DNA of 34,655 nt from IMG/VR virus record IMGVR_UViG_2531839666_000023. One strand, 5' to 3'. Below the pieces are notes generated by a model that saw nothing but the letters and a program-made list of their open reading frames with translations, had not been told where the DNA came from and did not search any database. This document shows positions 5,174-34,655 of this stretch, piece by piece (the stretch's first letter is position 1; every line of letters begins with the position of its first letter). Position numbers and translations under genes: made by a program. This DNA comes from a virus. Taxonomy: Duplodnaviria; Heunggongvirae; Uroviricota; Caudoviricetes.

Positions 5174-5293
5174 GTGATCATCATGCACACACAAAAAACC
5201 GCTTGCCAGCGCTCGTCGTGTCGGGTTACATTTCCGCTGCACCTCATAAAACGGGTGCCGGGATTGCAACCCCCGCCGACTATGCACGCGCAC

Positions 5294-5314
5294 AACCGCG
5301 CCAGCGGTTTTTTT
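5294..5314 (+). terminator. Rho-independent terminator-like hairpin
   Basis: Stem AACCGC, loop GCCA, stem GCGGTT, followed by a 7-T run on the + strand. Confidence 0.45.
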
Positions 5315-5492
5315 GTGCGTACTGTATCGCCACGTCTTTTTCGCATCGAAATTATGGCGGGGCGTACGGGGCCGACTTCGGTCGGGCCGGGTTCGTGCGT
5401 AGCCGGTGGTTGCAACCCTGTACGTCTCGCCACCCAGAATTGCAACCTCTGGATGGTGAGTTTTCAAAACTTACTACGTACGAGGCCACACC

Positions 5493-5720
5493 ATGGCAAA
5501 CCGCAAACAACAGCGCGCCCGCGCTGAGCGTCTTCACATCCGCACTGAAATCAACCGCAGGCTCTGGCGCGCATCACGCGTCGCGCAAATCATGTACATC
5601 AACATGCTGCATGAACACGCACACGCGCTGTCAGACCGTTACTGTGCCGCCGTCTTCAGCTACCTGGCGGATGACCTGGCAGAGCTGCAGGACCTTATCA
5701 ACCAGCAACACCACCACTAA
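5493..5720 (+). CDS. Hypothetical protein (75 aa)
   Basis: ORF following the repeat/hairpin-rich non-coding stretch; basic N-terminus. Confidence 0.35.
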   Translation: MANRKQQRARAERLHIRTEINRRLWRASRVAQIMYINMLHEHAHALSDRYCAAVFSYLADDLAELQDLINQQHHH

Positions 5721-5788: not shown

Positions 5789-6199
5789 ATGAAGAGCGTT
5801 AAGGGACTTTCAGATATTCAGGATTTTTTTAACTGGATGTGGGCAGTGGATCCCCGGCTGGCTTCCCGCCTGAACGACTGGCACGACTATTACCGCCGCG
5901 CCTGTAAACAGGCCGCCAGACACGTCACCACATACGGGGATTTCTCCTTCACCGTTGACGACCGTTACCGCGTGGACGTGAAAGGTGATGGTTTTGGTTT
6001 ATTTCACATCAACGGAACCGACAGCACCGCCATCAGTTGGTCGTCGTCAGAGATGACGCTTGTTCTGGAAATGACAAACCACAGCGTGGCCGTGAAAGGT
6101 ATATACACCGCAGAAGACTTTATCGGTGAATACCAGCGCCTTCTCGTGCTGTACCGCGCGGCGTTTCAGGCGGCGACTGCCGGGGAGTGCGACGCATGA
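5789..6199 (+). CDS. Hypothetical protein (136 aa) upstream of replication gene
   Basis: ORF whose 3' end overlaps the start of the replication initiator gene. Confidence 0.45.
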   Translation: MKSVKGLSDIQDFFNWMWAVDPRLASRLNDWHDYYRRACKQAARHVTTYGDFSFTVDDRYRVDVKGDGFGLFHINGTDSTAISWSSSEMTLVLEMTNHSVAVKGIYTAEDFIGEYQRLLVLYRAAFQAATAGECDA

Positions 6200-8715
6200 G
6201 CGACCATAATGCACAACTGGCGTACCCGTGGAACGCCCCGCTACCGGTTATCGATCCTGAAACGTTCGGCAGAGCGCAGCCAACCGCATTACGCCAGGCC
6301 ATTCAGAGCTACATCAACGAGGATATTCGCACTGACGCCAGACTGGATGAAGAAACCGTCGCCTTCCTGACAACCACAGACGAAGGGAAGCGAATTAATT
6401 CGCATCTTTACCACGACGAAGAGCGTCGGATCAGGCTGGAAAAACTGGCGCGGCACAAACACGAGAATCCGCCAACACTGGTATCTGAAGCCATGGCAGA
6501 GCTGCGCGCCCTGCCGCCGTTTCTTGCCGGTCCGCTCATCCGTGACCTGGCGCGCCTGAGCCGCAAACAGGAGAGCGCACGCCGGGAAGGGCTTAAGAAT
6601 AACAGCGCATATGCGGCGGATAACTTCGTTCGTCACGGGCTGCGTGCCCGCCTGAAACGTATCGCCCGTGTGAATGAACGCTTTGCCACCCCGGCCTTTA
6701 AGGCCACCGCCGCGCGCGAACGGCTGGATGAACTGCTTATGCTGCCACAGCTGAGCCGTGACGAAATCCAGCGCCTTGCCACCCTGACCGCCACCGCGTT
6801 TTCCACCGCACTGGAGCGCGCATGTGATGAAGTCATCGAAAAGACCGGCAGGGGTGACGATGACCTGCTCACCTGGTTACTGACCTACCAGCCACTGGCA
6901 CACATGGCGTTAAAACTGGGTATCACGCCACCCTGCTGGCCGTCGCTGGAAATCAGGCCCGACCGCCGCACCGACCCCGACCCGGAACGGGTGCCGGGTG
7001 CGGTCATGCGCCTTTCCTGTGCGACATGGTGGAACAGTCAGTTAAGACACCTCCGGGACATCTGGCGTGAAGAACTGTTACGCGCCGCAGGTCTGGTGTC
7101 ACGTAAGACATCGGTATATATCAGCCATGAAGCGTTACTGGACTGGCGCGAAAAACGCCAGCGCACCCGCGATTTTCTGAAGGCCTGGGACATCGAGAAC
7201 GAAGAGGGAGAACGGTTCAGCCTTGAGGATATCTACTGGGCAGGTCTCTCTAATCCGCGTAACCGCCGTAACGAGATGATGACCTGCGCCCGGGGAATGG
7301 AGCAGGTCGCCGAAGCACGCGGCGACGTGGCGTTTTTCGTCACCGTCACAGCCCCTTCCCGTTTTCACAGCGTGAACGATGACGGCAGCCTGAACCCGAA
7401 ATACTGCGGAGCAACGGTACGCGATGCCAGTGATTATCTGGTTTACCGCTTTTTCGCCGCCGTCCGCAGGGCCATCGACAAGGCCGGGCTGGGCTGGTAC
7501 GGCGTGCGCACCGTGGAGCCCCACCACGACGGTACACCGCACTGGCACATGCTGGTATTCACCAGCCAGGAAAACGAAGCCCGTATCACTGAAATCATGC
7601 GCAACGCCGCCATCAGGGAGGACCGCGCAGAGCTGGGTGATGATATCTCCCCGCGTTTTAAATGCAAAAAAATCGACCCGGCAAAAGGCACACCGACAAG
7701 CTATATCGCGACCTATATCGGTAAGAACCTGGACGCCAGCACCTTCATGGGGAATGACCCGAAAACCGGCAAACCTTACGTCGATAAGGAATCAGGCAAA
7801 ACCATGGCCGAAACCGTGGAGAACGCCATCGGCTGGGCAGGCCTTCACCGCATCCACCAGTTCCAGTTCTTCGGTATCCCTCCCCGCCAGGTATGGCGCG
7901 AACTCCGCCGTCTTGCCGGGCAAATGGCCCGTAACCCGGCTGCCCCGCAGCGTCTGGACCATGACGACATTGACGCCATACTGGCCGCCGCCGACGTGGG
8001 ATGTTTTGCCACCTATATCACCCGCCAGGGTGGTGTGCTCATTCCCCGCAACACGTACCTGGTCCGCACCGCATACGAAACTGCCGAAGAGGCCAACGAC
8101 TACGGCGAATTCCCGCAACGCATTTACGGCGTCCGCGCCCCGTCACTCGGGGAGCGCTACACCATATGCACCCACCCGGACACCTGGAAACTGGTCAGAC
8201 GTAAGCCGGAAAACGAAGACCGCACGGACGAGGGTTTTGACGTTGAGTGCGGCTTTGCCGCACCTTGGACTCGTGGCAATAACTGTCCCCCTGACCAGAA
8301 TCTGACCATAAACGCCCCGCCAGAAAGGCAGCCGGACGGACGCAGGGAGCAGCGACTTACCCTGCCGGAAGGTGATTTGGGTGAATGGTTAAGGTCACTG
8401 ACACCCACAGAGCGAAAACAACTCACCAGGCAGCTGAAAAACCCGCCACCTGACACGGAAACCGTGAAAAACGGCGGCATCAGTGCGCCCGCTGGCGGCG
8501 TTCGCGTGAGTGTCGCTCTGACCGCTGAGCCACACATCACCGCACAAATCACCCGCGAGCTTGATGCGCTGGGCGTACAACTGCATGAAAGCGCCGTCGT
8601 TTCCGTCCGTCACGGTGCCCGCGTGCGCCTGGCTGACGGACGCACCGCGTACTGGAATGACAGCACCCGCCGCATTGATATCACCCCCGCACCGAATACG
8701 GAGGCGCCACAATGA
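6187..8715 (+). CDS. Rolling-circle replication initiator/endonuclease, P2 gpA-like (HUH)
   Basis: 842 aa; HUH motif in TPHWHMLVF (around 7537-7560) and YxxxY catalytic-tyrosine motif in SYIATYIGK (around 7699-7725). Confidence 0.85.
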   Translation: MRRMSDHNAQLAYPWNAPLPVIDPETFGRAQPTALRQAIQSYINEDIRTDARLDEETVAFLTTTDEGKRINSHLYHDEERRIRLEKLARHKHENPPTLVSEAMAELRALPPFLAGPLIRDLARLSRKQESARREGLKNNSAYAADNFVRHGLRARLKRIARVNERFATPAFKATAARERLDELLMLPQLSRDEIQRLATLTATAFSTALERACDEVIEKTGRGDDDLLTWLLTYQPLAHMALKLGITPPCWPSLEIRPDRRTDPDPERVPGAVMRLSCATWWNSQLRHLRDIWREELLRAAGLVSRKTSVYISHEALLDWREKRQRTRDFLKAWDIENEEGERFSLEDIYWAGLSNPRNRRNEMMTCARGMEQVAEARGDVAFFVTVTAPSRFHSVNDDGSLNPKYCGATVRDASDYLVYRFFAAVRRAIDKAGLGWYGVRTVEPHHDGTPHWHMLVFTSQENEARITEIMRNAAIREDRAELGDDISPRFKCKKIDPAKGTPTSYIATYIGKNLDASTFMGNDPKTGKPYVDKESGKTMAETVENAIGWAGLHRIHQFQFFGIPPRQVWRELRRLAGQMARNPAAPQRLDHDDIDAILAAADVGCFATYITRQGGVLIPRNTYLVRTAYETAEEANDYGEFPQRIYGVRAPSLGERYTICTHPDTWKLVRRKPENEDRTDEGFDVECGFAAPWTRGNNCPPDQNLTINAPPERQPDGRREQRLTLPEGDLGEWLRSLTPTERKQLTRQLKNPPPDTETVKNGGISAPAGGVRVSVALTAEPHITAQITRELDALGVQLHESAVVSVRHGARVRLADGRTAYWNDSTRRIDITPAPNTEAPQ

Positions 8716-9116
8716 CCCGCTTTTATTGCGCCATGCAGCGCCAGCGTTTTGACGAAATGATGCGCCAGCGCACGCCCTTACTGACCCTGAACAACATTGC
8801 CACGGGGCCACAACCGGGCGATGAGCTGGAAATCACGGTCGTCAGTCCCGATCGCACCACCACGGCCATCATCACCGACATACTCAACGGACGACCGGAC
8901 AGCACCAACCGCAGCTGGCTTGTCGCCGTTCGTCCGCGCCGTCCGCCCGGAGAGCCGGAGCCGCTCACGCCTGCCGGAAAAATCATGCGGCAGTACCACG
9001 AAGAGCAGGCACACAAACACAACGCAGAACTGACCAGAACACTGGCATCGATTAACCGCAAAGCGGCAATTGCCCGCTATGTGCATTCAGCCGCTGGCAG
9101 ACAATCACGCAGGTAA
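8712..9116 (+). CDS. Hypothetical protein (134 aa), coupled to replication gene
   Basis: ATG overlaps the stop of the upstream gene (ATGA); no motif recognised. Confidence 0.4.
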   Translation: MTRFYCAMQRQRFDEMMRQRTPLLTLNNIATGPQPGDELEITVVSPDRTTTAIITDILNGRPDSTNRSWLVAVRPRRPPGEPEPLTPAGKIMRQYHEEQAHKHNAELTRTLASINRKAAIARYVHSAAGRQSRR

Positions 9117-9125
9117 ACAAAGACC

Positions 9126-9335
9126 ATGAACATAACCAGAAACAGCCAACTAAAGGAGCGCACCATGAACAGCACCAGGAGGATCAGCGACAGAGAGCTT
9201 ACGAAAATGATTGAGTCGGCGCAGCAGCTGCTTTCACGACAAAACCCGGTCGTGGAAGAAACATGGTGGGAGAATTTACTGGCAGCACTGACCGAACTCC
9301 GGGAACGCCGGAACAACGAAGGAGCCGCCAAATGA
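9126..9335 (+). CDS. Hypothetical small protein (69 aa or shorter from internal ATG)
   Basis: ORF in the operon; stop overlaps the next start as ATGA. Confidence 0.3.
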   Translation: MNITRNSQLKERTMNSTRRISDRELTKMIESAQQLLSRQNPVVEETWWENLLAALTELRERRNNEGAAK

Positions 9336-9658
9336 AGACCCCAGGAATGACCGGAAAGGAAATCATTTTACGCTACCTGGAAACGCACGCACGTTTCAGC
9401 GCCCCAGAACTGGTAGAAAAACTGGGCGTGAAAAGAACCGTCATTAATCAGGCCGCCGGAAAAATGGTACGGGAAGGGTTGCTGGTTGTGGACGGGTACA
9501 CGGACAAGATAACGCATTACCGGAAGCCAACGGAAAAGGAACGACAGGAACTGGCGCAACGGGCTGAACAGCAGCAGGAAAAATCAGTCATCGAAGCCTG
9601 CAAGCGCAGCGAAATCATGAAGCGAATTCTGTTTATCTACGGCGCTGCATTCCGTTAA
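9332..9658 (+). CDS. Hypothetical protein (108 aa), possible winged-helix fold
   Basis: Internal ATG of the 9263-9658 ORF; pattern LVEKLGVKRTVINQAAGKMVREGLLV resembles a small DNA-binding domain (inference). Confidence 0.4.
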   Translation: MKTPGMTGKEIILRYLETHARFSAPELVEKLGVKRTVINQAAGKMVREGLLVVDGYTDKITHYRKPTEKERQELAQRAEQQQEKSVIEACKRSEIMKRILFIYGAAFR

Positions 9659-9672
9659 AGGAGCTGGTGAGT

Positions 9673-9697
9673 CGGGGCAAAAATTCTTTTTGCCCCG
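9673..9697. terminator. Bidirectional rho-independent terminator between convergent genes
   Basis: Perfect hairpin CGGGGCAAAAA-TTC-TTTTTGCCCCG, flanked by A/T runs on both strands. Confidence 0.7.
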
Positions 9698-9723
9698 GCG
9701 AAGCAGCAGACAAGCGAAGCGCG

Positions 9724-9987
9724 TCAGGAACGCCGCGACAGTAGTTCAAGCGCATACCGGCGATCTTCCGGGCACATGGCATCAACAAGAAACTTCACCA
9801 TATTGCGACCGGAGCGGGCGCCGGGGCTGAGGGTATGGGAAAAGGTCATCGTACAGACGAAGGTATGCCCGCATTCGACATCACTGCATGCACAGTACAG
9901 ATCCGCAAGTTCAGGGGTTTTCCAGTCTGTCTTCCGGATGACAGCAGGTGCGCCACAGTCCGGACACCGGGCTTTAAAAATCCGCAT
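9724..9987 (-). CDS. ogr: Ogr/Delta-family zinc-finger late transcription activator
   Basis: 87 aa from internal ATG with GGGAGG RBS; cysteine pattern CPDC...CACSDVEC typical of the Ogr/Delta zinc finger; sits just downstream of the portal gene on the same strand. Confidence 0.6.
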   Translation of the reverse strand: MRIFKARCPDCGAPAVIRKTDWKTPELADLYCACSDVECGHTFVCTMTFSHTLSPGARSGRNMVKFLVDAMCPEDRRYALELLSRRS

Positions 9988-10024
9988 CTTACCTCCCGAT
10001 AACACGTATCCCGGGGAGGACATT

Positions 10025-19233: not shown

Positions 19234-19539
19234 ATGCCGGACGGTCAGACTTCACTCCTGGCAAAACTGATTATCATCGGTGCTGCCATCGGGCTGGGGC
19301 GTCTCATGGTGAGCCGCGATCGCATCACAGCCCGTCTGCTTATCGGGCGAATGATTATGGGCTCTGCCGTGGCACCGGTTGCCGCCATTCCGCTGTTTAA
19401 ATTTCCGGACATGCCGGAGCTGGTAGTGGTCGGTCTGGCGTGCGCGCTGGGCATTATGGGCAGCGCCTTTATTGAAGAATGCTTTTGCCGTCTGGCAGAC
19501 CGCTACCTGAAGCAGAAGGAACGCAGAAATGACCCATAA
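19234..19539 (+). CDS. Holin-like membrane protein
   Basis: 101 aa with three hydrophobic segments and a charged C-terminus (RYLKQKERRNDP); sits in the lysis cassette upstream of the endolysin and spanin genes. Confidence 0.5.
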   Translation: MPDGQTSLLAKLIIIGAAIGLGRLMVSRDRITARLLIGRMIMGSAVAPVAAIPLFKFPDMPELVVVGLACALGIMGSAFIEECFCRLADRYLKQKERRNDP

Positions 19540-20281
19540 GCCTTACATTTCGCCTTCCCTGAGCCTGTATCACGCGCAGGCGCATGACGTTCTGCGGATG
19601 CTGCCGGAAAACAGTGTGGACGCGCTCATCACAGACCCGCCATACAGTTCAGGTGCCACACACAAGGCGGGGCGGACATGCCAGGGCAGCCACGCCAAAT
19701 ACATCAACGATGAAGATCTTCACCGCTTTGAAGGCTTCGAAGGCGAGAACATGGACGCCCGTTCATGGGAATACTGGACGCATCTGTGGATGACACAGGC
19801 ATGGCGCACGGTACGACCCGGTGGTTACGCCCTGGTCTTCACCGACTGGCGGCAGTTGCCCGCGCTGACGGACGCATTCCAGGCCGCCGGCTTTACCTGG
19901 CGGGGGATCGTGGCATGGAACAAGGGACGGGCCTCAAGAACACCGCATACCGGTTATTTTCGTCACCAGTGCGAATATGTGGTCTGGGGCAGTAAAGGCG
20001 CGCTGGGCAAATCCCCTTCCGGGCCGTTCGACGGCTGCATCACGCACCACACACGCCCACAGGAGAAACAGCACCCGACAGGTAAACCGGAATCGTTGAT
20101 GGATGAGCTTGTGCGCGTGTGTGAACCCGGAGGGCTGATCCTCGATCCGTTTATGGGGTCCGGCACCACGGGCGTGGCCGCCCTTCGCCGGGGCTGCCGT
20201 TTTACGGGTATTGAACTGAACGCCCACTATTTCAGCGTAGCACAGGCGCGTCTTACGGGGACGGAACAGAGGAGTGACTGA
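19529..20281 (+). CDS. DNA methyltransferase, beta-class amino-MTase, probably N6-adenine; no restriction partner seen
   Basis: DPPY catalytic motif near the N-terminus (ITDPPYSSG) and AdoMet-binding FxGxG motif near the C-terminus (LDPFMGSGTTG); motif order IV then I indicates beta class. Confidence 0.8.
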   Translation: MTHKPYISPSLSLYHAQAHDVLRMLPENSVDALITDPPYSSGATHKAGRTCQGSHAKYINDEDLHRFEGFEGENMDARSWEYWTHLWMTQAWRTVRPGGYALVFTDWRQLPALTDAFQAAGFTWRGIVAWNKGRASRTPHTGYFRHQCEYVVWGSKGALGKSPSGPFDGCITHHTRPQEKQHPTGKPESLMDELVRVCEPGGLILDPFMGSGTTGVAALRRGCRFTGIELNAHYFSVAQARLTGTEQRSD

Positions 20282-28492: not shown

Positions 28493-29218
28493 ATGACGTG
28501 GACAAGAAAAACAATCAGCGTCAGCGCTGACATGCCCCCGCTGAGCTGTTCCGTCATCCCCGTCACACCGTGGACTTACGGGCTGGGACGATATGAAGAA
28601 TCGGGGGTATATTTAAGCCCTCCGAACGCCATAAACTGGCTGGCCGGGAAAATGGCCGGAAGCCGTGCATCCGGCGACGTGACCATTATCATGATTGCCG
28701 AAAACACCCACGATCTTTTTATACAGTCAATGGCGGCACTGACCACCGTTCTGCCCGTGCCGGTATTCACGCAGGCACAGCGCATGGCACAGGCTGCCGC
28801 CAGTCTGAGCACTGACAAAATGCAAATCCCGATCACCACCGACACCCTGCCCGCACCTGTGCATCTTTCCGTTTCCACAATACGCAGCGCAGTCAGTGCC
28901 GCCCGTGCAGCACAGGCCAGGCAGCTGGCAGCACAACGCCCGGATGCCGCAGGGCTTCGCCGCCAGATAAGCCGCTTTATCAGCAGACGGGCTGGCGCAC
29001 TTGCCGGACTGGAAGAGGGGATCAGAACACTGGCAGAACAGAAGGCGCAGGCCTGGGTATTTCAGTACCGGGGGTATCACCGCGCCGCAGCGGCGGCCAT
29101 GGTGAAGGATATCCCGGCACCGACCGCCGTACATACTGTGGCCGCACTCCTGGCGGCAGACTCATTAACCGAACTGGGGAAAATGATCCATGAGCCAGAC
29201 CGCACTGCTCGCCCTTGA
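28493..29218 (+). CDS. Hypothetical protein (241 aa) after the tail fibre assembly gene
   Basis: ORF with Ala/Arg-rich helical C-terminal half; no motif recognised. Confidence 0.35.
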   Translation: MTWTRKTISVSADMPPLSCSVIPVTPWTYGLGRYEESGVYLSPPNAINWLAGKMAGSRASGDVTIIMIAENTHDLFIQSMAALTTVLPVPVFTQAQRMAQAAASLSTDKMQIPITTDTLPAPVHLSVSTIRSAVSAARAAQARQLAAQRPDAAGLRRQISRFISRRAGALAGLEEGIRTLAEQKAQAWVFQYRGYHRAAAAAMVKDIPAPTAVHTVAALLAADSLTELGKMIHEPDRTARP

Positions 29219-29732
29219 TGGTGAGGGTATTTTCATGCAGAACATGGTGATTTCGCCCTCGATGCAGTTCCAGGAAAAGGACCAGTCCGGTCAGACATCG
29301 AGCACCGCGAACGCCGAGCAGGGCATCAAGGCCAAAGAGCTTCGCGTAACCGGGATGATCACCTTTGACAATGAGCGGGCCCTTCAGCGCATTTTCCAGC
29401 TGGCCTCTGCCACCACCGGGGACGGTGCCCTGAAAGTTTACCGTATCGCAAACGCCACCGCTGCCGCCATTAACTTTCGTGAAGGGACATTTTCCGGGCA
29501 GATAGACGCACAGCAGCAGACCGACCGCCTCGCCTGGCAGGTCAGCTTCACATTACGCGAAAGACGAAGCGTACCGGAAAAACGCCAGGCACGCGCCACC
29601 CCCGGCAGCAGCCGTAAACAGACGCCGCAGACGCCCGGCGCAAAAGGCAAAACCGTGGCCAACGAAACACCGGAGAAAATGACCTGGTTCGAAGAAAAGG
29701 TCCTCAAACCCGTCAATGATGCGCTGGAGTAA
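29190..29732 (+). CDS. Hypothetical protein (180 aa or shorter from internal ATG at 29235)
   Basis: ORF overlapping the previous gene end; alternative start at 29235 has a GGTGAGGG RBS; function unknown. Confidence 0.35.
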   Translation: MSQTALLALDGEGIFMQNMVISPSMQFQEKDQSGQTSSTANAEQGIKAKELRVTGMITFDNERALQRIFQLASATTGDGALKVYRIANATAAAINFREGTFSGQIDAQQQTDRLAWQVSFTLRERRSVPEKRQARATPGSSRKQTPQTPGAKGKTVANETPEKMTWFEEKVLKPVNDALE

Positions 29733-29734
29733 CC

Positions 29735-31408
29735 ATGAACCCCACTAAACGTCTGTTACTGGGTAACGACACCATTCAGCTGGTCAGCTGTTCCGTCATG
29801 CTTGAGCTGAACGCGTGCGGACGCGGATTTATCACGGCCAGAACGGAGCAGAACTACACCGGGCGCCCTGTTCGTCTCGATATCGGATACGGAAACGACC
29901 TGGTGCGCTGGTTTACCGGATACGTTGAACGCAGCCAGCCCGCTGAAAACGGCTCGGTGCGGCTTCTGATTCGTGAAATGGCGGGGATCCTTGATCACCC
30001 CTTCCCCTGTTCATTTCAGCACCCGACAATGCGCACGGTCACACAGTGGCTGAGTGAGACCAGCGGGCTGGAAATCATCCTGCCGGACAACGCGGCTTAC
30101 ACTGACAGACCCGTTCCGCATTTCACGCACAGCGGCACGGGCTACGAACTGCTGGCCAGTCTGGGGCGTATTTTCTCCGTACCGGACTACATCTGGCATC
30201 CGTTACCGGACGGCGGCATTATGGCCGCTGCCGCCGCGCAGGGGATGTTTTCCGGTCGCCCCGTCACCATCCCGCACGAGTTCAGCCAGGCATCAACGGG
30301 CGGACACAGTATGACCCTCCCGATGATTCAGACGCTGCGACCGGGTGTGGAGGTGAACGGTCAGCGCCTGACGATGGTCATGCTGGAAGATGACAACATG
30401 ACCATCACGTGGACACCACGCAATAAAGCCACCGGCGCCCCCCTCCAGAAGTCCCCTTTCCGTCGCCAGGCTGAAAAGGCCTTCCCTGAACTGGCATCAG
30501 GGCTTCACCTGCCCAAACTGGCACGTGTTGAGGCGCCGACCGAAGCCGTCAGCGCGGGCAATATTGCCGACCCGTTCAGACCCCGCTACGCGGTGAGTCT
30601 CCAGCTGCTTGACGAGAACGGCAACCCGGCAGCGGATACGCCCGTTTATAACGCCGTTCCCCTCCCCGTTCCTATGGCGGGCAGTGAGTCCGGCATGTTC
30701 CAGTTCCCGCCACCCGGAACCCTGGTGGAAGTGGGATTTGTGGAAGGCCGGGCGGATAAGCCCTTCATCCGCCAGATAATGGCAGAGGGCCACAATCTGC
30801 CCGACGTGAAGCCGGGCGAGCAGTTGCAGCAACAGCGCGACGGCGTATCGCAGCGCGTGACGGTCGCCGGAGACTGGGAGCGCCAGACAGACCAGCGGAT
30901 ACAGGAGACATCACGCGAGCGCGTGGTGAGCGCAGACGAGGAGACGCGGAGCCTGACCAGCCGGGAGACCACCATACAGGCAACCGACACAACCACCGTC
31001 CTGGGCGTATCCACGCTTCAGGCTGGCGCAGTCACCCATATCACTGAAGAGAACTACAGCATCAGCACGGGCGGGCACATGATGGTGGTTGCCGGTACCT
31101 GTGAGCGCGACGTGGAAGGCGACACACTGGACACCGTGGGCGGCAGCCTTACCGAAAAGATTAAGGGCGTCCGTCACAGTATTGCGCTGGCGCAGAAGCT
31201 GGTTGGCGATACGGTGAAGCTGGGAAACGAGGACATTAATGTACTGACCATGCTGACGGACCTTGCCGATGTGGTGGAAGAGCTGGCCGATATTACGGCA
31301 TCACATACCCACCCCAAAACGGGCACGTCTCCGCAGGCCGCACAGTTCAGCCAGGTCGCTCAGGAGTGCCGCCAGCTTAAAAATAAATATTCACCAATAA
31401 TCGAATAA
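29735..31408 (+). CDS. Putative baseplate spike/hub protein (gpV-like OB-fold and beta-helix-like C-terminal region)
   Basis: 557 aa; central segment GMFQFPPPGTLVEVGFVEGRADKPFI resembles the gpV OB-fold signature; C-terminal repetitive beta-strand-like segments; the last ORF of the prophage. Confidence 0.4.
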   Translation: MNPTKRLLLGNDTIQLVSCSVMLELNACGRGFITARTEQNYTGRPVRLDIGYGNDLVRWFTGYVERSQPAENGSVRLLIREMAGILDHPFPCSFQHPTMRTVTQWLSETSGLEIILPDNAAYTDRPVPHFTHSGTGYELLASLGRIFSVPDYIWHPLPDGGIMAAAAAQGMFSGRPVTIPHEFSQASTGGHSMTLPMIQTLRPGVEVNGQRLTMVMLEDDNMTITWTPRNKATGAPLQKSPFRRQAEKAFPELASGLHLPKLARVEAPTEAVSAGNIADPFRPRYAVSLQLLDENGNPAADTPVYNAVPLPVPMAGSESGMFQFPPPGTLVEVGFVEGRADKPFIRQIMAEGHNLPDVKPGEQLQQQRDGVSQRVTVAGDWERQTDQRIQETSRERVVSADEETRSLTSRETTIQATDTTTVLGVSTLQAGAVTHITEENYSISTGGHMMVVAGTCERDVEGDTLDTVGGSLTEKIKGVRHSIALAQKLVGDTVKLGNEDINVLTMLTDLADVVEELADITASHTHPKTGTSPQAAQFSQVAQECRQLKNKYSPIIE

Positions 31409-32260: not shown

Positions 32261-32401
32261 ATGCCGCAAAAAACGATCATAGTGAGCATTTTATGCATAA
32301 CTATTTTGATGATTGTCTGGATGATACACAAGTCACCGTGTGAGTTCAGGCTTAACATCATGTGGTCACAATTTGCGGCGTTCTTGCAGTGTAAACAGTA
32401 A
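32261..32401 (+). CDS. Hok/Gef-family type I toxin peptide (46 aa), copy 1
   Basis: Hand translation MPQKTIIVSILCITILMIVWMIHKSPCEFRLNIMWSQFAAFLQCKQ; hydrophobic N-terminal helix plus KSxCExR...AAF signature as recalled for Hok-family toxins; below ORF-track cutoff. Confidence 0.65.
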   Translation: MPQKTIIVSILCITILMIVWMIHKSPCEFRLNIMWSQFAAFLQCKQ

Positions 32402-32491
32402 GAAACCGCAGCGGGGGTGAAAGCCCCCGCTATCCGGTTGCCGGGTTCGGTCGATATGGCACCCTTTCTCCGTTGGATTACAGACGTATTT

Positions 32492-32514
32492 GCCCGCGAC
32501 ATGCGGGCCTTTTT
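32492..32514 (+). terminator. Rho-independent terminator after hok-like copy 1
   Basis: GCCCGC-GACAT-GCGGGC hairpin followed by CTTTTT. Confidence 0.6.
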
Positions 32515-32982
32515 GTTCAGTTGTATTTATTGTGGTCGTTACTGGCAGTGGTATTAACTGATTTTGCATGAATAGCACAAATTTTTTCCACGATAACACC
32601 ACACGCTTCAAGATCTTCCGAGCGTGAAACCTTTATTTTTGTAATAGTCTCAGGATTATCAGCCGTTCCACTTTGCACAACCTCAATTTCAATTTTTTTC
32701 TTGAAAGAATCATTTTCATCGCCCCGACACAGGACAGAGTAAGCCTGTGCGAAAGAATATCACCAGTGCGATAGCGTTGTCTGCTTCAACGCCAGGCATT
32801 GCGCACACAAAGGGAAATCAGTACATTACACGCGGGTGCCTTTCGGCTGACGGCTGGAAGGATTACCTGAAGGCCGGATGTGGAAAGGCCCCGAGTAAAA
32901 CATTTGTTTAACCCGAGGCCTAACCCTTCCTACCCTAGACAAGTGGAAGGTTAGCGTCTCCCTGTAAAAGGAGTCAAGCGCT

Positions 32983-33123
32983 ATGCCGCAAAAAACGATC
33001 ATCGTGAGCATTTTATGCTTAACCATGTTGTTGACCGTCTGGATGATACACCGTTCTCCGTGTGAGTTCAGACTTAACATCATGTGGTCAGAATTTGCGG
33101 CGTTCTTGCAGTGTAAACCGTAA
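32983..33123 (+). CDS. Hok/Gef-family type I toxin peptide (46 aa), copy 2
   Basis: Hand translation MPQKTIIVSILCLTMLLTVWMIHRSPCEFRLNIMWSEFAAFLQCKP; same architecture as copy 1. Confidence 0.65.
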   Translation: MPQKTIIVSILCLTMLLTVWMIHRSPCEFRLNIMWSEFAAFLQCKP

Positions 33124-33216
33124 GAAACCGCAGCGGGGGTGAAAGCCCCCGCTATCCGGTTGCCAAAGGTTCGGTCGAAAGTCGCACCCTCACACAAAAG
33201 TCACAAAGAAAAACAA

Positions 33217-33247
33217 AGCCCGCAGCGTAAAAACTGCGGGCTTTTTT
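33217..33247 (+). terminator. Rho-independent terminator after hok-like copy 2
   Basis: AGCCCGCAG-CGTAAAAA-CTGCGGGCT hairpin followed by TTTTTT. Confidence 0.7.
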
Positions 33248-33362
33248 GTTTCAAAGATGGACGTTATCTGGACACACGAAAATAAAAAATCTTTATTTTC
33301 AATATGTTAACCACCCACTAAAACCACCCGCAGGCGCTTTTTAGATTCAGAAAAATTGGGTA

Positions 33363-34655
<1,293 letters not shown>

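Follow-up and report, generated by a model that had tools for sequence, protein, structure and literature searches.

Three small genes behind the replication initiator of a P2-like Escherichia coli prophage: a lambda Ren homologue and the probable end of the replication operon

From gpA to the portal operon

We have analyzed a window of 34,655 nucleotides (virus record IMGVR_UViG_2531839666_000023), and within it the stretch that follows the gene of the replication initiator gpA. Three small genes, here called g1, g2 and g3, are found there, followed by a hairpin, a probable cos core and an ogr/Delta-like gene that converges on them (Table 1). The initial annotation had proposed open reading frames of 134, 69 and 108 amino acids, and all three were confirmed at the positions given. 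They are truly coding, as indicated by their codon-position bias and by dN/dS values of 0.16–0.45 against homologues, i.e., they are under purifying selection. For gpA we have used the start given by RefSeq; the longest open reading frame begins at a GTG at 6187. The ATG of gpA in turn overlaps the stop of a 136-aa open reading frame upstream, as ATGA.

Table 1. Features of the gpA–ogr region, in window coordinates
Feature	Position	Strand	Remarks
gpA replication initiator	6196..8715	+	839 aa from ATG 6196; Pfam Phage_GPA, E 3.5e-105
Co-diverging block	8287..9036	+	C-terminal tail of gpA (~residues 700–839) and most of g1
g1	8712..9116	+	134 aa; orphan; start overlaps gpA stop (ATGA)
g2	9126..9335	+	69 aa from 9126, or 56 aa from 9165; orphan
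g3	9332..9658	+	108 aa; by sequence, lambda Ren homologue; RefSeq label MarR family regulator
Palindrome/hairpin	9671..9699	.	10-bp core stem, 3-nt loop; 13 pairs if extended
cos core (probable)	9696..9716	.	GGCGAAGCAGCAGACAAGC, directly behind the hairpin
ogr/Delta-like zinc-finger late activator	9724..9987	-	Pfam Ogr_Delta, E 1.1e-15; RefSeq annotation

Translational coupling through ATGA overlaps had been proposed for the entire row of genes, and we found it at two of the three junctions. The gpA stop (TGA, 8713–8715) overlaps the ATG of g1 (8712–8714) and the g2 stop (TGA, 9333–9335) overlaps the ATG of g3 (9332–9334). Between g1 and g2 there is no overlap; the TAA of g1 is located at 9114–9116 and g2 starts either 9 nt (9126) or 48 nt (9165) further on. 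The first of these starts has a weak Shine-Dalgarno sequence (SD), the second a strong AAGGAG 6 nt upstream, and the second is also the one chosen by RefSeq in the annotation of a 99.8%-identical prophage. The start of g2 is nevertheless ambiguous because in two relatives the codon equivalent to 9165 is ATT, so that the upstream ATG is needed there.

The promoter scan detected no sigma-70-like site within 8000–10000, either inside or just upstream of the three genes, the scan being a consensus-based one that a weak internal promoter could escape. The G+C content was 0.61 for g1, like that of gpA, and 0.52–0.53 for g2 and g3, a level also covered by the phage genes around them. As to the time of expression, we infer that g1–g3 would be made in lytic growth, along with gpA, the rolling-circle initiator; they would not be expressed as lysogenic-conversion genes.

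The core of the hairpin, GGGGCAAAAA-TTC-TTTTTGCCCC, is located at 9673–9695 and extends to 13 pairs over 9671–9699, with a predicted RNA folding energy of -30 kcal/mol (z -4.6). It lies between the converging early operon and the ogr-portal operon and is conserved in the relatives, in which a compensatory A>T / T>A change keeps the pairing. The description of this element as a perfect bidirectional terminator was right regarding the palindrome, which is perfect, but no U-run follows the stem on either strand (GGCGAAGC on the plus and GACTCACC on the minus strand) and the element was absent from the list of the terminator scan. A canonical bidirectional intrinsic terminator is thus unsupported. 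The layout and the conservation point to GGCGAAGCAGCAGACAAGC as the probable cos core, and P2 has the same arrangement, with a hairpin and directly behind it cosR (GGCGAGGCGGGGAAAGCAC). The hairpin/cos element was conserved, and always portal-proximal, even in relatives with portals only ~30% identical, and the 74 bp at 9656–9729 were 92–93% identical in P88-like phages.

g1 and the C-terminal tail of gpA

The g1 family was found in E. coli only, in 67 genomes of the ecoli_genomes set. At every locus that could be evaluated, with gpA identities of 53–99% and portal identities of 30–100%, g1 remained linked to gpA: at all annotated junctions its start overlaps the stop of gpA, and at the other loci, including that of the most distant member of the family, g1 is located directly behind gpA. 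By sequence, g1 is an orphan. Pfam, NCBIfam and PADLOC gave nothing, tblastn against 50,697 phage records gave no match, and a profile search over 1.84 billion representatives recovered only the family itself and low-complexity matches. The comparison of the g1 profile with the PDB sequences produced only noise (best match RuvA, E 0.32).

The end of gpA and most of g1 diverge together. When compared with the locus L006, the nucleotide identity was 93–100% over 6187–8286, fell to 59–70% over 8287–9036 and rose again to 85–95% over 9037–9636, indicating that the middle block is a deeply diverged allele between far more similar flanks. The block begins right behind the P2-type nick motif, since the stretch homologous to the nick motif of the P2 ori is located at ~8260–8290 and aligns at gpA residues 689–700. 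The dS values reflect the same partition, being ~0.6–1.8 for g1 vs. 0.11–0.37 for g2 and g3.

In a sister clade of gpA (52% identity, ~1,380 genomes) g1 is missing, and no other gene is coupled to gpA. Because this clade does without it, g1 is not generally required in gpA-type replication. The gpA proteins of the sister clade are also longer by 80–105 aa, which, together with the constant company that g1 keeps with the gpA tail, could be taken to mean that g1 is a remnant or a split portion of the gpA C-terminus, or else a dispensable reading frame kept through its linkage to gpA and the ori. We consider this very improbable. The comparison of g1 with the long gpA tails revealed no profile similarity (hhalign probability 0.03–0.04%), and on these figures an origin as a split-off part of the longer sister-clade gpA is rejected. 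Besides, g1 carries its own SD and ATG, has 31 invariant residues among 30 sequences and shows dN/dS values of 0.24–0.45 at a dS of ~1. For these reasons, i.e., the lack of similarity to the gpA tail, the start signals, the invariant residues and the dN/dS, g1 is considered to be maintained as a protein of its own.

The AF2 model of g1 shows a small beta-barrel at the N-terminus and, behind it, a long basic helix (residues 87–133) at the C-terminus. The best structural matches of the N-terminal domain, modelled with a pLDDT of only 54–73, were ASCH domains. This domain is probably a degenerate ASCH-like barrel, an assignment in which we have low to moderate confidence; neither Pfam ASCH nor DUF3850 matched g1 or any of the 30 family members. 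P2 has in Orf91 (DUF3850/ASCH) a protein of the same ASCH family as the top matches of the model, and its gene, like g1, overlaps by 4 nt the stop of the replication gene, gene A. The landmarks FD...GDxLxI...ITD[VI] have a comparable spacing by eye in both proteins, and g1 differs by its additional 47-residue C-terminal helix. Similarity between the two sequences was undetectable (hhalign probability 0.2%), the likeness being one of fold and position only. g1 is the positional counterpart of P2 Orf91 and, judging from the model, probably also its structural counterpart.

Because its start overlaps the gpA stop, g1 would be produced together with gpA. It is probably a clade-specific partner of the initiator, and the biochemical role that we infer is that of a replication accessory, acting either with the gpA tail or on the ori or nucleic-acid intermediates.

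The lambda Ren homologue g3 and the g2–g3 block

At the sequence level, g3 is homologous over its full length to Ren of phage lambda, itself a winged-helix protein. BLASTP aligned it with Ren residues 1–93 of 96 (42% identity, E 7e-27), tblastn located the match in the lambda genome (J02459, 40268–40558; 40.8% identity over 95% of g3, E 1e-14), and g3 matched phrog_142, 'Ren-like exclusion protein', with an E value of 6.3e-29. The differences from Ren are 5 additional residues at the N-terminus and a longer linker. A small DNA-binding fold had been guessed for this gene and a sub-threshold Pfam match and the AF2 model bear it out as a winged helix (wHTH), located at residues 8–64 (pLDDT 85–91) and followed by C-terminal helices.

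The junctions through which both genes are translated are also alike. At g2/g3 the AAGGAG is separated by 8 nt from the ATG, which in turn overlaps the TGA of g2, and the P/ren junction of lambda is identical (AAGGAG-N8-ATGA), each of the two genes being the last coupled one in its replication operon. However, lambda ren follows O and P, whereas g3 follows a P2-type HUH rolling-circle initiator and two orphan genes. The g3 matches in the collection of 50,697 records of sequenced phage isolates, none of which exceeded 60% identity, adjoin P or DnaC-like loaders; upstream of g3 itself there are gpA, g1 and g2 and no such association with lambda-type O/P or DnaC-like loaders is found.

The classical phenotype of Ren is reportedly the protection of the phage itself from exclusion, and not the exclusion of other phages (Toothman & Herskowitz, 1980). 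By analogy, g3 would shield the replication phase of its own phage when resident lambdoid prophages impose Rex-type exclusion, and would probably do so by contacting proteins or DNA. In lambda, ren is co-transcribed with O and P and has been described as 'likely involved in DNA replication', and the Rex proteins contact O and Ren in two-hybrid assays (bioRxiv 10.1101/2021.04.19.439022); a RexB-Ren contact also figures in the lambda interaction map (PMC3224144). A Ren role tied to O and P could not be transferred to g3, because g3 follows a HUH initiator.

The RefSeq label suggests a different function, that of a MarR-type regulator timing ogr and the late genes, or host genes, with no part in exclusion or replication. 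The winged-helix fold would be consistent with it, and so would the structural neighbours of the model (ArsR/MarR-type repressors), a MarR_2 score of 26.2 bits vs. a cut-off of 27, the precomputed PF12802 match of some relatives and the location of g3 beside ogr. Yet the match to lambda Ren is full-length and far stronger than that to MarR, and the Foldseek search of the PDB with the g3 model returned generic winged-helix proteins only, with no match at E <= 0.001. MarR proteins are typically ~140–150 aa long, and their wHTH stands between dimerisation helices at the N- and the C-terminus. g3 has 108 aa and a wHTH that begins at residue 8, and it lacks the N-terminal helix. Furthermore, five close relatives (L003, L004, L086, L087 and L089), with gpA 97–98% and ogr 96.5–99% identical, do without g3, and this speaks against g3 being an essential regulator. 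A purely regulatory g3 is therefore unlikely in our view, and we retain the reading of g3 as a Ren-type protein.

The remaining gene, g2, encodes a small protein, apparently of two helices. It matches phrog_14672 (E 3.3e-32, function unknown) and the C-terminal half of phrog_7520, and falls into 75 clusters at 76% identity or more, all those with a named source being from E. coli; tblastn against the 50,697 phage records gave no match. The dN/dS was 0.30–0.43. It may be an adaptor, or merely a gene that delivers ribosomes to g3. A homologue, WP_012601394, is listed as 'hypothetical' in the locus table of Rousset et al. (2022; PMC9122126).

Together, g2 and g3 are a separate and recently exchanged block. 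They were found in 38 members of ecoli_genomes vs. the 67 that carry g1, i.e., about every second prophage with g1 has them, and g3 has been replaced in relatives whose gpA is 97–98% identical. Six loci (L003, L004, L086–L089) have g2 without g3, and other relatives have lost g2. An obligate pair, such as a toxin-antitoxin, is ruled out by the presence of g2 without g3 at these six loci.

A more specific proposal would be that g2–g3 is a portable cassette against abortive infection, of anti-Rex type, which came from lambdoid O/P modules into a P2-type rolling-circle module, and, separately, that g1 is a degenerate ASCH-fold subunit specific for its cognate allele of the gpA tail. We regard it as possible but doubtful. 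If true, the transfer of g2–g3 would show that Ren acts without O and P, its target being the exclusion system or a host factor. For its part, g1 would be a component of HUH phage initiators, for specificity or as an accessory, that had so far escaped notice, and P2 Orf91 would be its remote counterpart.

Defence cargo or early genes

Between gpA and the portal, P2-like phages have a documented variable hotspot close to cos (Rousset et al., 2022, PMC9122126). What we found there in the relatives includes a Rosmer-like RmrA (HTH and M78 peptidase) together with a PIN protein, a TumE/HVO_A0114 toxin-antitoxin pair, a short SSB, a DUF4760 protein and an IS insertion; the prophage analyzed here has nothing more between g3 and the hairpin/cos element. 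P2 itself carries tin and old between gene A and cos/Q (P2 map; PMC9122126), and the parallel drawn with P2 in the initial annotation was correct by position. It could imply that g1–g3 are cargo of the same sort, expressed from the prophage and protecting the lysogen from superinfection, and the variation of g2 and g3 among close relatives, the defence-like genes of other relatives and the PHROGs category of phrog_142 ('moron, auxiliary metabolic gene and host takeover', under the name 'exclusion protein') are in agreement with such a role. The equivalence does not extend beyond the position. The P2 genes are located on the opposite strand and have their own mapped mRNA starts (P2 map), unlike g1–g3, which share the strand of the early operon, are coupled with gpA and show no promoter-like site. 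One of the three, g1, is invariant in its clade and always tied to gpA. PADLOC gave nothing for g1 and g2 and only weak matches for g3 (best E 1.6e-4, all inside residues 9–94), the composition of the three genes is core-like, and the phenotype that Ren is said to confer is protection of the phage from exclusion, not exclusion of other phages. We consider a defence or superinfection-exclusion function of the three genes very unlikely.

The variability among relatives expected of cargo was found for g2 and g3, but g1 never varies. Conversely, the core-like conservation and kinship with replication accessories that would speak against cargo are apparent in g1, partly in g3 and not in g2. The three-gene cluster probably consists of ordinary early genes of already known kinds rather than of a tin/old-style defence cassette, and we think it probable that g1–g3 form the tail end of the replication operon in a rare P2-like prophage of E. 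coli.

If this is right, the hotspot of P2-like prophages does not hold defence cargo only; the genes next to gpA can be accessories of the replication operon, and a search for defence systems should first separate them from the real cargo. It would also place a Ren homologue outside the lambdoid O/P modules, and g3 would offer a simple genetic handle on whether Ren acts on Rex or on the replication proteins. The practical stakes of the reading are modest.

Elsewhere in the window, three hypothetical genes at 28493–31408 were examined with Pfam as possible cargo. The 241-aa reading frame had no Pfam match, and the other two are of baseplate type, one matching HP1 ORF34 (E 1.2e-53) and the other, weakly and below the threshold, Phage_base_V.

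Gene order and coding capacity

A P2-like E. coli prophage makes up the window. At 8500-9800 it shares 99.8% identity with a prophage of strain 2013C-3033 that is inserted between dmsABC and serS. The local order is a 136-aa ORF, gpA, the three small genes (g1, g2 and g3), a hairpin and then the convergent ogr, the portal and the large terminase, with no further gene in the gap between g3 and the hairpin. We found no Pfam family for the 136-aa ORF. Its stop overlaps the gpA ATG (6196) as ATGA, and the coupling chain therefore runs from this ORF through gpA to g1.

Features around the gpA-ogr interval and a cargo system found in two relatives (loci L095 and L096)
Feature	Coordinates	Remarks
136-aa ORF	5789-6199	upstream of gpA; conserved, preceding gpA in all relatives
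gpA	6196-8715	Pfam Phage_GPA, E 3.5e-105
g1	8712-9116	134 aa
g2	9126-9335	69 aa; 56 aa with the 9165 start
g3	9332-9658	108 aa
Hairpin	9671-9699	13 pairs; dG -30 kcal/mol, z -4.6
ogr	9724-9987	convergent on the three genes; portal, then large terminase beyond
Rosmer-like RmrA (XRE HTH + M78 peptidase), then PIN-domain protein	L095 8313-9966; L096 7046-8699	RmrA, PADLOC E 3e-35

All three reading frames claimed after gpA in the initial annotation are present. Coupling by ATGA, which had been extended to the whole series, holds at gpA/g1 and g2/g3 but not at g1/g2, where either a 9-nt spacer with a weak SD leads to the ATG at 9126, or a 48-nt spacer leads to the ATG at 9165, which a strong AAGGAG precedes at 6 nt. 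For g2 of the identical prophage RefSeq takes the 9165 start; in two relatives the equivalent codon is ATT and an upstream ATG serves as start. Differences from the homologues pile up at third codon positions in all three genes, and the dN/dS values (0.24-0.45 for g1, 0.30-0.43 for g2 and 0.16-0.35 for g3) are low as well, indicating that these are genuine genes under purifying selection.

The interval had also been equated with the one in which P2 carries the defence genes tin and old. In P2 these two are read from the other strand, from mapped transcript starts of their own, whereas g1-g3 share the orientation of gpA and overlap as ATGA at two of three junctions. A scan for sigma-70-like sites found none within or just before g1-g3, and PADLOC returned nothing for them except weak matches confined to g3. 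The G+C content of g1 (0.61) is like that of gpA, and that of g2-g3 (0.52-0.53) falls among the values of the phage genes next to them. Strand, coupling, promoter scan, PADLOC and G+C all indicate that g1-g3 are not a tin/old analogue.

g3 and lambda Ren

Judged from its sequence, g3 is a homologue of lambda Ren. Its PHROGs match is phrog_142, 'Ren-like exclusion protein' (E 6.3e-29), and pairwise BLASTP against Ren gave 42% identity (E 7e-27) over Ren residues 1-93 of 96. By tblastn, 170 of the 50,697 phage records were matched. Phages of E. coli or of enterobacteria account for most of them, and lambda itself is included (g3 40.8% identical over 95% of its length, E 1e-14); among the matches listed, the position was that of annotated ren, adjoining either P, the helicase loader gene, or a DnaC-like loader. 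The g2/g3 junction even repeats that of lambda P and ren: AAGGAG, then 8 nt, then an ATG that overlaps TGA. The small DNA-binding fold suspected in the third gene is borne out by the AF2 model, in which residues 8-64 form a canonical winged helix (pLDDT 85-91) and the helices after it are less confident. Pfam MarR_2 scored 26.2 bits, just under the 27-bit threshold, and the structural neighbours of the model were generic wHTH proteins, none of them at E <= 0.001.

Mutants of lambda ren are reportedly sensitive to Rex exclusion, the classical phenotype. The gene is transcribed from pR together with O and P and has been called 'likely involved in DNA replication', and the Rex proteins have been described as contacting O and Ren in two-hybrid assays (10.1101/2021.04.19.439022); a yeast two-hybrid hit between RexB and Ren is also on record (PMC3224144).

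The region is a P2-type module in which a Ren homologue stands beside two already catalogued orphan PHROG families, g1 and g2. The three genes would be expressed with gpA on lytic development. The Ren-like g3 may protect the phage during replication from abortive infection of the Rex type; lambdoid prophages that carry RexAB occur in the same E. coli host. The g2 product, small and apparently made of two helices, might also bring ribosomes to g3, and g1 could be a clade-specific accessory that works together with the gpA tail or on nucleic acid near ori. We regard this reading of the three genes as somewhat favoured overall, and each biochemical role as less probable than the whole. The initial observation was partly confirmed and its interpretation partly supported.

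g1 and the gpA tail

The sole PHROGs match of g1 was phrog_14984, with function not assigned there. Its family comprises 35 clusters, with E. coli in all, and only three representatives among 1.84 billion proteins; a search of the phage collection (50,697 records) gave no match. It occurs in 67 genomes, at 78 places. We surveyed 40 relevant loci for g1-g3 (L001-L012 and L086-L113, from relatives). In every locus with a visible junction g1 is directly 3' of gpA, and the carrying loci span gpA identities of 53-99% and portal identities of 30-100%. The overlap with the gpA stop is 4 nt wherever gene calls or annotation exist, including the metagenomic P0111, the most divergent family member.

Sliding nucleotide identity against the comparison locus L006 revealed a sharply bounded, deeply diverged block (8287-9036) made of the gpA C-terminal tail and most of g1, with values of 93-100% upstream, 59-70% within and 85-95% downstream. 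The dS was about 1 for g1 vs 0.1-0.4 for g2 and g3. The block starts immediately after gpA residues 689-700 (8260-8290), a stretch with homology to the nick motif in the P2 ori (P2 GCCGCGCCTCGG/AGTCCTGTCAATAAC, window GCCGCACCTTGGACTCGTGGCAATAAC); the P2 nick-site motif GCCGCGCCTCGGAGTCCTGTCAATAAC has its counterpart, GCCGCACCTTGGACTCGTGGCAATAAC, inside gpA.

In P2, the small gene orf91 occupies the same position as g1: its overlap with the stop of gene A is 4 nt, and it encodes a Pfam DUF3850/ASCH protein. Sequence comparison detects no similarity of g1 to Orf91 or ASCH, so that the link consists of position plus a tentative fold match.

In a commoner sister gpA clade (52% identity over residues 1-749; 921-946 aa; about 1,380 of 5,426 E. 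coli genomes), two loci (L116 and L117) were examined; their gpA ends in another, longer tail at the C-terminus, and they contain neither g1 nor a gene coupled to the gpA stop. Constant in its own clade and absent from these loci, g1 is core within the clade and not across P2-like phages generally. The sister-clade gpA-portal intervals contain an AAA ATPase and an S8 peptidase, or ParM, a partition protein and an Ead/Ea22-like protein.

The variable interval, the hairpin and other prophage genes

The g2 product matches phrog_14672 (75 clusters at no less than 76% identity, the source-named ones all E. coli), and homology searches gave no informative homologue. Counted over the surveyed loci after removal of duplicates, g2 and g3 occur together at about 10 distinct loci, g2 alone, its C-terminus recombined at the junction, at 6, and neither at about 15. 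Among the complete E. coli genomes, 38 had g2-g3 DNA (full-length in 33) vs 67 with g1. The cargo of relatives 3' of g1 or g3 includes, besides the Rosmer-like RmrA and PIN pair, a short SSB, DUF4760, an Ead/Ea22-like protein, several unknown genes and, in some, a TumE/HVO_A0114 pair, and IS3-family insertion was seen in the gpA-ogr interval of some of them. Variability of cargo at this junction is true of g2, g3 and the downstream genes, but g1 is constant. The varied cargo agrees with the published gpA-gpQ hotspot (PMC9122126); in the table of loci of that paper a g2 homologue already figures as 'hypothetical'. In some relatives the short SSB follows the Ren homologue.

What had been described as a perfect bidirectional terminator is indeed a perfect palindrome, GGGGCAAAAA-TTC-TTTTTGCCCC, but neither strand has a T-run after it, and it was missing from the output of the terminator scan. 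Both the palindrome and GGCGAAGCAGCAGACAAGCGAAGCGCGTCAG behind it are kept in relatives, always adjoining the portal or ogr stop, even at ~30% portal identity, and one variant, with A>T / T>A as compensatory change, still forms the palindrome. P2 has the same layout, a hairpin and then directly the 19-nt cohesive end GGCGAGGCGGGGAAAGCAC; at 9671-9730 the window (palindrome plus GGCGAAGCAGCAGACAAGC) reproduces the hairpin-then-GGCGA layout of the P2 right end. Besides, 74 bp (9656-9729) showed 92-93% identity in P88-like (Xuanwuvirus) phages. Conservation, portal-side position, P2-like layout and P88-like identity indicate that the element most likely belongs to cos, whatever its role in termination.

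Elsewhere in the prophage, a 75-aa early-operon ORF (5493-5720) matches PF25738, the 'Derepression protein family' of Pfam (E 2.4e-7), and RefSeq names its counterpart in relatives 'derepression protein'; a truncated ash-family pseudogene is annotated by RefSeq just upstream (about 5177-5437). The RefSeq annotation of the identical prophage also places a DNA methyltransferase in the lysis cassette, between the holin and the M15 endolysin (about 19529-20281), and three Hok/Gef-family toxin genes at the end adjoining serS (about 32261-33599). The hypothetical genes just upstream of the latter (29190-31408) gave baseplate-type Pfam matches, strong to HP1 ORF34 and weak to Phage_base_V, and so do not look like cargo.
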